Below are positions 43,522 through 44,882 of a stretch of 64,000 bases of DNA, one piece after another (within the stretch, counting starts at the first letter, position 1; each line of letters starts with the position of its first letter). The notes beneath the pieces are model-generated. The model had not been told where the DNA came from, ran no database searches, and saw only the letters and a list, made by a program, of their open reading frames with translations. The stretch lies in the NCBI RefSeq assembly GCF_024502345.1, contig NZ_JALDNN010000001.1. One strand, 5' to 3'. The position numbers and the translations under genes are program-made. Origin of the DNA: Escherichia coli (lineage in GTDB: Bacteria > Pseudomonadota > Gammaproteobacteria > Enterobacterales > Enterobacteriaceae).

Positions 43522-44026
43522 ACCACCCCCACAAGTTCCGTCGTCACGCGGCCTCGCCTGAGGAAGTTCTTGCAAGACTTTGCAAGATATTGCGCCTAAT
43601 ATGCCAAAAGTCAAGAGTCAACATCCAGCGATCTGCTGGCCGATTGATGTGACTCAAATCTTCAAGGACGGTATGCCAGGGCGGGCCGGTCCGGCGCAGG
43701 GGACGGTGGGTTGATCGGGACCTTGCGGGCGCCGCCCACGGCCGCAGATCAAACACCGATCCTCACGTTGTAACCGAGCGCCCGCAGCCCCTTGCTCGTG
43801 CGCATGTTCCTTGGCGGAAACTCGTCTGGGCGCGCCCAGCCGACGATTTCCCCGAGGCTGCTCAGGCCAATGTGCGGAATTGCCCAGTCGTCGCTGCGGA
43901 TCGCGTTCCAGAGTCGGGCCGAAAAACCTCCGTTGCCCCAGACAACGTAGTTCAACAGTATCCGTCCTGCCAACACACCTTCCCGACACCGCCGCCGAAG
44001 GCCATGGCCCATCAAGCGGATTTTCC

Positions 44027-44399
44027 ATGCCCCCTCAGCGCCGTACCTACAGCAAATCTTTCAAGGCCCAGGTCATTCAGGAGTGTTCTGAACCCGGTGC
44101 CTCCATCGCAAACATCGCCTTGGGCTACAGCCTCAATGCCAACCTCGTCCACAAATGGATTCGGCTGCATACCCAGAAAACCACGGCTATCCAGCCAGCG
44201 TTCATCCCGTTGCCTTCTCAAATGCTCGGCGCGGGATCGCATGCTCAAGTGCGCTGCTGCGATCATGAGTTTGATCCAGTCGGCCCGTAATAATGGGCAC
44301 GATCCGTATGCCTATCTCAAGGATGTGCTGACACGGTTGCCGACGCAGCGGGCGAGTGAGATTGCAGAGCTGCTGCCGCATAGGTGGCATCCGGCATAG
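44027..44399 (+). mobile_element. IS66-family remnant (TnpA-like N-terminus fused to the last residues of a TnpC-like transposase)
   Basis: MPPQRRTYSKSFKAQVIQECSEPGASIANIALGYSLNANLVHKWIRL... then ...NGHDPYAYLKDVLTRLPTQRASEIAELLPHRWHPA; internal deletion inferred. Confidence 0.5.
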
Positions 44400-44659
44400 T
44401 CGCGCAAGACGGTCTGCCCGCACGCTTACGTTCAACAGCTCAAGCACCGTCCGCCCTTCGCGGGATCGTTGCCGCCAGAGCCACACGCCGAACTTTTCCA
44501 CCTTGTCGTCGCCGGCCTGCGGTCAGTCAGGCAAGCCCAGGTGCTTGTTTTCCTGCTTGATCGCGTGGTCTCGGATCGCGTGCACCCGGGAAACGGCATC
44601 CACGAACTGCCACCATCTCTTAGCTTGGCGGGGTCAAGCCAGCCGGGATGCCCGGACGG

Positions 44660-44882
44660 TTACGCTGGTCCGCGCCCAGTTGCAGCACCAAGGTCGGCCG
44701 CAGTGATGAAGCGGGTCTTGATGCCGCACTGCGCCGCCCGATAGCGCAGTGCGATGGCCAGATGCGTCTTGCCGACTCCCAAGGGGCCTATATCGCCTTG
44801 GCACGGCTCCGGGCAGTTTCGGGGAGGCTGCACGCAGTGCGCGACAAGATGTATCTCAGCCGAACTGCGGTGTATTCTGCAA
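44660..44882 (-). mobile_element. IstB/DnaC-like AAA+ ATPase gene fragment
   Basis: Reverse strand encodes ...[42 protein letters not shown] then stop; no start codon or N-terminal region. Confidence 0.45.

Follow-up and report, generated by a model that had tools for sequence, protein, structure and literature searches.

Previous work has described the tLST island as "flanked by mobile elements", Tn7 among them, in published passages on tLST/LHR2 that leave the structure of the flank undivided (PMC8290217, PMC4563881, PMC5383660). Islands of this kind include the LHR2 loci of E. coli FAM21805 and C604-10, of Salmonella Senftenberg, and of the Klebsiella clpK plasmids. Many such records from E. 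coli, S. Senftenberg and Klebsiella, both plasmid and chromosomal, are 100% identical to positions 43240-44900 of the 64,000-nucleotide stretch of E. coli DNA analysed here (the window).

Tn7 and Tn7-like elements carry their transposition genes in the order tnsA-B-C-D-E, end in TGT-type terminal repeats, and hold variable cargo right after tnsE. The element in the window shares this arrangement, but its cargo is a stress island plus insertion sequence (IS) debris, and the 5-bp target duplication of Tn7 is not seen at its present ends. Within the debris, one relic resembles the ISPsy43-type IS66 elements of Pseudomonas (tnpA-tnpB-tnpC, ~2.4 kb) in its ends, which begin GTA(A/T)(C/G)CGT, in the ~70-bp leader before tnpA, in the TnpA N-terminus and TnpC C-terminus (68% and 92% amino acid identity), and in its 8-bp target duplication. 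Unlike those elements, it lacks ~1.9 kb, including the TnpC DDE domain, is only 74-82% identical in nucleotide sequence to the nearest full-length copy found, and was found in a single context. Another relic resembles the istB gene of IS21 elements (ISKpn7, ISPsy4) around the Walker-A region, with 76-81% nucleotide identity over ~90-130 nt; in contrast to an IS21 element, it is only 128 bp long, without istA and without IS21 ends.

We find that the interval from 43522 to 44882, between tLST/LHR2 and tnsE, is made up of what remains of three insertion sequences and of a single disrupted host gene, which we call gene X. As a kind of feature this is ordinary, and its pieces are already annotated, since RefSeq (PGAP) lists three pseudogenes here in identical records: 'transposase', 'transposase domain-containing protein' and 'ATP-binding protein'. 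What the present analysis adds is the nesting of the relics, the target duplication, the recognition of the gene X remnant, and an order of events. Its practical value is modest and no new mechanism is involved. The analysis does establish where the tLST island and the Tn7-like cargo truly begin and end, and identifies a gene family as the native neighbour of tLST; an 8-bp duplication, a 472-bp relic and the joint at 44610/44611 become discrete lineage markers with which the spread of the heat- and chlorine-resistance island through Klebsiella, E. coli, Salmonella and Pseudomonas can be traced.

Setting of the interval

The Tn7-like element spans 23617-52626. A repeat search places its 26-nt terminal inverted repeats (TGTGGGATGCAAATAAAG...), which are 96% complementary, at 23617-23642 and 52601-52626. 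The genes tnsE, tnsD, tnsC, tnsB and tnsA follow in that order across 44883-52506, as annotated by RefSeq in an identical record. The last gene of the transposition module, tnsE (44883-46505, minus strand), also matches Pfam TnsE_C (E=5.5e-44). At the ends of the element we found no 5-bp target-site duplication, the flanks being TTCAC (23612-23616) and CATTT (52627-52631). An IS5-family transposase gene (21279-22247) is located immediately beyond the left end, and the flanks may therefore have changed by rearrangement since the insertion.

The Tn7-like element of the Acinetobacter plasmid pWM98B is 88% identical to 44901-52626, starting inside tnsE and ending exactly at 52626. Past tnsE it continues into unrelated DNA. 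Because of this divergence, all DNA left of the tnsE stop is cargo, which thus runs from beyond the left terminal repeat up to 44882 and comprises tLST and the scar. The original prediction had read 43522-44882 as decayed IS66-type and IstB-like pieces sitting exactly where cargo meets the transposition module, and had taken them to suggest capture of the island through IS-mediated events; it proposed a search for IS similarity and a comparison with related tnsE junctions. The pWM98B comparison puts the fragments on the cargo side, as anticipated, and the similarity search returned significant TnpA, TnpC and IstB homologies. However, ~40% of the interval is not IS-derived: 43522-43957 and 44438-44609 are the intergenic region upstream of tLST and the remnant of a non-IS gene.

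The island itself has the gene content of tLST/LHR, with an HTH gene (orf1), an sHSP20 gene and clpK first, followed by ftsH, yfdX1/2, hdeD-GI, trx-GI and kefB-GI; these names are the RefSeq products in NZ_CP030920.1, in which the stretch equivalent to 43240-44900 is 100% identical to the window. The first tLST gene, orf1 ('dna'; 43240-43521, minus strand), is annotated in identical records, matches Pfam HTH_17 (E=1.2e-17), and lies outside the scar. The sHSP gene occupies 42635-43243 and clpK 39688-42597. Upstream of the operon, the intergenic region (43522-43748) is the most divergent segment among tLST variants.

Gene X and the 472-bp IS66-family element

Gene X lies in two parts on the minus strand, a 3' part at 43749-43957 (about residues 250-318 of 318, plus the stop codon) and an upstream part at 44438-44609 (residues 193 to about 250), the latter recognized by homology to the intact gene X of contig L016. 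Excision of 43958-44437 yields one unbroken minus-strand frame that is 95% identical to residues 193-318 of the homologue P0106, and a search with the reconstructed protein recovered uninterrupted homologues. The intact gene encodes 318 residues in L016 (8001-8957), so that the window retains only residues 193-318. In L016, gene X lies directly upstream of genes for an HTH protein and an sHSP, followed by a partial ORF where clpK would be; identity to the window is 93% throughout this arrangement, the intergenic region included. We conclude that gene X belongs neither to an IS nor to tLST, and is the native upstream neighbour of tLST. The L016 cluster has a chromosomal context, beside topoisomerase IV genes.

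The gene X family is uncharacterised, with ~300-360 residues in its longest called forms, and is also represented in L017 and P0104-P0119. No Pfam or NCBIfam family was found for it. In the longer homologues (350-356 residues), the N-termini weakly match the C-terminal tail of DrmC-type PLD nucleases of DISARM, and the ancestor may thus have been a larger PLD-domain protein. Two RefSeq proteins of the region, WP_001446199.1 and WP_001446200.1, are chimeric ORFs that span IS joints; the second, an 87-residue 'hypothetical protein', begins inside the left end of the IS66-family element that interrupts gene X.

The sequence that interrupts gene X is a 472-bp, internally deleted IS66-family element (43958-44429, plus strand). 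Against the full ISPsy43-like element of a Pseudomonas syringae plasmid (L015), blastn gave three collinear blocks, 43958-44007 (82%), 44025-44209 (74%) and 44253-44425 (81%). From the left inverted repeat, which starts at 43958, the relic proceeds to the 5' part of tnpA at 44027-44212 (amino acids 1-62 of the ISPsy43-like TnpA; tblastn E=1.7e-27), crosses a deletion joint at ~44213-44246, and continues with the 3' part of tnpC at 44247-44399 (amino acids 459-508) up to the right inverted repeat, which ends at 44429. Over 44247-44393, tblastn with TnpC amino acids 459-507 gave 92% identity (E=1.2e-22). The ends are imperfect inverted repeats, starting GTAA and GTAT and complementary at 10 of the outermost 15 nt, and both align to the ISPsy43-like ends. 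Since the nearest full-length relative is 74-82% identical, the deletion joint is fixed only to within ~35 bp. In total, ~1.9 kb has been lost, comprising the 3' portion of tnpA, the whole of tnpB (for which tblastn detected nothing in the element) and TnpC residues 1-458. With neither a complete tnpA and tnpB nor a DDE tnpC, the relic is a non-autonomous deletion derivative and not a functional IS.

Profile matches thus upheld both halves of the predicted IS66 pair: the TnpA N-terminus fits NCBIfam NF047595 (positions 1-65 of 113, E=8.9e-19) and Pfam HTH_Tnp_1 (E=1.6e-7), and the TnpC-like C-terminus fits Pfam DDE_Tnp_IS66_C (PF13817, E=2.2e-17). The two had been described as fused across 44027-44399. 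They are indeed adjacent in the DNA, but they occupy different reading frames and therefore give no in-frame fusion protein.

Copies of the 8-bp sequence GTTCAACA at 43950-43957 and 44430-44437 bound the element, within a 9-nt direct repeat (GTTCAACAG) at 43950 and 44430. In five independent lineages (L003/L004, L007, L008/L009, L010 and L016), empty sites carry a single copy of GTTCAACA, and the contigs match both flanks of the window with an overlap of exactly 8-9 bp. The single copies prove that the 472-bp element was inserted. A longer duplication, or two gene X paralogues, was considered because a sequence across the IS left end, RRRCREGVLAGRILLN, resembles RQRSREGRTVLELLN of gene X; this was rejected since every empty site overlaps by exactly 8-9 bp.

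The spread of the element was surveyed among ~1200 plasmid and 138 E. coli records matching at ≥95% identity, for which 40 and 25 matches, respectively, sampled evenly down the ranking, were listed. Most of the listed records hold it in a single place. Among the matches listed, it was always in the gene X/tLST context or a truncation thereof, and it was also present in tLST contexts without adjacent tnsE, such as the E. coli H7 chromosome. Its intact terminal repeats and perfect 8-bp duplication would be expected if the element were a live, MITE-like IS66 derivative that an ISPsy43-type transposase could mobilise in trans. We consider this extremely improbable, given that the matches listed gave no second context, and hence no sign of MITE-like spread, and that the rest of the window contains no IS66 transposase gene. 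A full-length, high-identity parent IS was sought without success among E. coli genomes and plasmids, where the best of the matches listed reached 81-85% over the 3' end of tnpC, and no full-length ISPsy43-like copy was found at the gene X site. The element may have been already deleted, and non-autonomous, on arrival.

The cargo-side joint

Homology to the L016 gene X ends at 44608-44609. Immediately beyond it, at the joint 44610/44611, gene X breaks off at codon 193 and runs directly into base 53 of another IS66-family left end, which comes from an element distinct from the 472-bp one; the original prediction did not include this solo end. These first 53 bp (44611-44663, minus strand) are inverted and match the leader of an Azotobacter plasmid IS66 element (85.5% over 55 nt, E=8e-8), at a point ~45 nt (~95 nt from its outer terminus) upstream of the IS66 tnpA start. 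The terminal GTAACCGTCCGGGCA is common to other IS66 left ends, and the subterminal GCTAAGAGATGGTG is shared with such ends, two Azotobacter copies among them. A 75% direct repeat of the 472-bp element's right repeat had suggested that 44633-44663 might be a second IS66 right end. We rejected this because the subterminal sequence matches the Azotobacter leader upstream of tnpA, as an inverted left end does. When four IS66 left ends were aligned, the solo end and the left end of the 472-bp element proved only ~60-65% alike, indicating that they come from different elements. In an Azotobacter record, the A. salinestris plasmid NZ_CP045303.1 (L013, 2713-3951), a protein annotated as an 'IS110 family transposase' starts with 36 IS66 TnpA residues; here an IS110 element is inserted in frame into an IS66 tnpA, and the two are annotated as one fusion protein.

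Abutting the IS66 terminus at 44663 is a 128-bp fragment of an IS21-family istB gene (44664-44791, minus strand) that covers the Walker-A region, about 43 of ~250 codons. It matches Pfam IstB_IS21 (PF01695, positions 98-131 of 238, E=4.8e-9) and NCBIfam NF006616 (E=1.8e-14), as befits an IstB AAA+ ATPase represented by ~43 residues only. The istB gene of ISKpn7 is 76% identical to the window over 129 nt (44663-44791; blastn E=2e-15), its similarity starting right at 44663. No istA, as an IstA-like ORF or a profile match, and no IS21 terminal repeats were found in 43522-44882. The predicted Walker-A fragment of 44660-44882 therefore stands as homology, but only over 44664-44791; since the similarity ends there, it does not abut the tnsE stop, as had been proposed, and lies 91 bp away. 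The intervening 91-bp stretch (44792-44882) has no assigned origin: it gave no family match and no DNA match beyond Tn7::tLST elements, and it is absent from the pWM98B element.

A further IS21-family element, apparently intact, lies inside tLST at 29485-32031, beside the Na+/H+ antiporter gene, with istA (30360-32123) and istB (29587-30528) both on the minus strand and inverted repeats of 40-55 nt at 29497-29551 and 31961-32023. It is missing from an otherwise 99.8%-identical Citrobacter element (L021). As a source of the istB fragment in the scar, this element (~29.5-32.0 kb) was ruled out, the two having no significant DNA similarity.

The two boundaries of the solo IS66 end are of different kinds. 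That at 44663/44664 looks like what is expected when an IS66 element inserts into an IS21 element. The one at 44610/44611, where internal IS sequence meets internal gene sequence, marks a breakpoint of deletion or illegitimate recombination rather than a transposition joint. This is the true cargo-side joint. Thus, the predicted placement of IS pieces exactly at the cargo junction holds for the second IS66 end and the istB fragment, but not for the TnpA/TnpC piece, which lies inside gene X.

All of the IS fragments could instead be footprints of an IS-mediated loading of the island into the Tn7-like element, by way of a composite transposon, a cointegrate, or recombination between IS copies. 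In keeping with such loading, an IS66 terminus and an istB fragment lie between the flank of the island and tnsE, IS66-family elements are present on both sides of the joint, and every metagenome contig with the joint (25/25) runs on into tnsE, a result that also speaks for the Tn7::tLST arrangement having arisen only once. We nevertheless regard loading of this kind as unlikely. The joint does not coincide with an IS terminus, the two IS66 left ends belong to different elements, the stretch from the Tn7 left end to the last tLST gene contains no IS-like ORF, and the TnpA/TnpC piece is separate and apparently later, with a target duplication of its own. Because it is discrete in this way, and is carried with tLST where there is no adjacent tnsE, the TnpA/TnpC piece is not a capture footprint. 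What is left of the predicted IS-mediated capture is that IS involvement, through the second IS66 end and istB, is plausible.

Probable order of events, decay and proposed exchange of island variants

It is highly probable, in our judgement, that the interval is inert, nested debris in which four kinds of relic record an ordered series of events. One contig bears directly on the order: L007 (ENA ERZ19211059) carries the joint between gene X and the IS66 end (27 of 28 nt) together with an uninterrupted gene X, and lacks the 472-bp element. The joint therefore appears to be older than the 472-bp insertion, as judged from this one short (922 bp), low-coverage metagenome contig, which ends 27 bp into the IS66 end, before istB and tnsE.

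The starting point, a tLST with a 318-residue gene X upstream of its first gene, is observed in the comparison with L016. In the series we propose, an IS21-family element would first have settled near tnsE in the cargo bay of the Tn7-like element, and an IS66-family element then inserted into its istB gene, as the precise terminus/target joint at 44663/44664 shows. A deletion or illegitimate recombination, of which the breakpoint is observed, would next have fused that IS66 element, at its base 53, to gene X, at codon 193, bringing gene X and tLST beside tnsE and removing most of both insertion sequences. Apparently later, the different, ISPsy43-like IS66 element entered gene X at codons 250-252, as the 8-bp duplication and the empty sites show; only 472 bp of it persist, with both ends kept, the rest having been lost either before or after this insertion. 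Gene X also gained a stop codon, the in-frame TGA now at 44523-44525, where the homologues P0001 and P0106 have Arg.

To follow the later history of the scar, we compared the window, which is LHR2-type, with LHR1-type (tLST1-type) elements (L002, L011 and L012). The sHSP and HTH genes are 81-83% identical between the two types, and the intergenic region upstream of tLST is 57-76% identical. In contrast, the scar and tnsE are 96-100% identical among elements whose tLST genes are 81-90% identical. The change is sharp, with a break at ~43750 that separates 57-88% identity leftward from 96-100% identity rightward through tnsE. Since its high identity matches that of tnsE and the core, the scar shares the history of the Tn7 core and not that of the island genes. 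The simplest account of this pattern is a single capture, after which island variants were exchanged by homologous recombination, one crossover falling close to the stop codon of gene X (~43750); the scar would now hitch-hike with the Tn7 core while divergent tLST variants are swapped in beside it. Tentatively, and with slightly less than even confidence, we extend this to a scheme in which tLST was captured once, by a conserved frame composed of the gene X remnant, the IS66 relic and the Tn7 core, LHR1- and LHR2-type variants being exchanged within that frame later, and in which many tLST copies of Enterobacteriaceae, including chromosomal ones without tnsE, would derive from a single Tn7-borne ancestor. 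A complete Tn7 element with a tLST1-type island, sought for a second crossover, was not found, as the examples fetched were truncated or LHR2-type. L012 is also mosaic elsewhere, with blocks of 97-100% identity inside clpK and at 32510-36905.

The same contrast in identity between the scar and the adjacent functional genes, seen between tLST1- and tLST2-type elements, might indicate that the scar is kept because it serves tLST, whether by providing a promoter upstream, by binding a regulator, or by encoding a truncated TnpA that acts as one; the 87-residue TnpA-N ORF does retain the HTH region. Yet recent shared ancestry and recombination suffice to explain a scar identity equal to that of the Tn7 core, and in natural variants parts of the scar are deleted or truncated, whereas those same records annotate the listed island genes as intact. 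Furthermore, in scans of 43000-45200, sigma-70 consensus or promoter-like sites and terminators did not rise above background, and there was no Rfam match. A retained function is thus very unlikely. As no promoter-like site, excess of terminators or Rfam family was found, we take the interval to be inert, and a working protein is probably not expressed from it.

Loss from the scar is continuing. In E. coli H7, the chromosomal LHR1 retains this gene X remnant and 472-bp relic only as far as 44544, where an IS256 fragment takes over; in ~1000 Klebsiella plasmids, another IS truncates the scar at 44342; and L020, L021, L041 and L042 contain further internal deletions. The scar is therefore still decaying, as expected of non-functional DNA. 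Outside it, orf1 is partly or wholly deleted in some LHR2 variants, namely those of E. coli FAM21805 and the Citrobacter plasmid pRHBSTW-00267_2 (L020/L021, relative to 43292-43558 of the window). These small deletions agree with the remark, in a published passage on FAM21805, that orf1 is absent from its LHR2 (PMC5383660).
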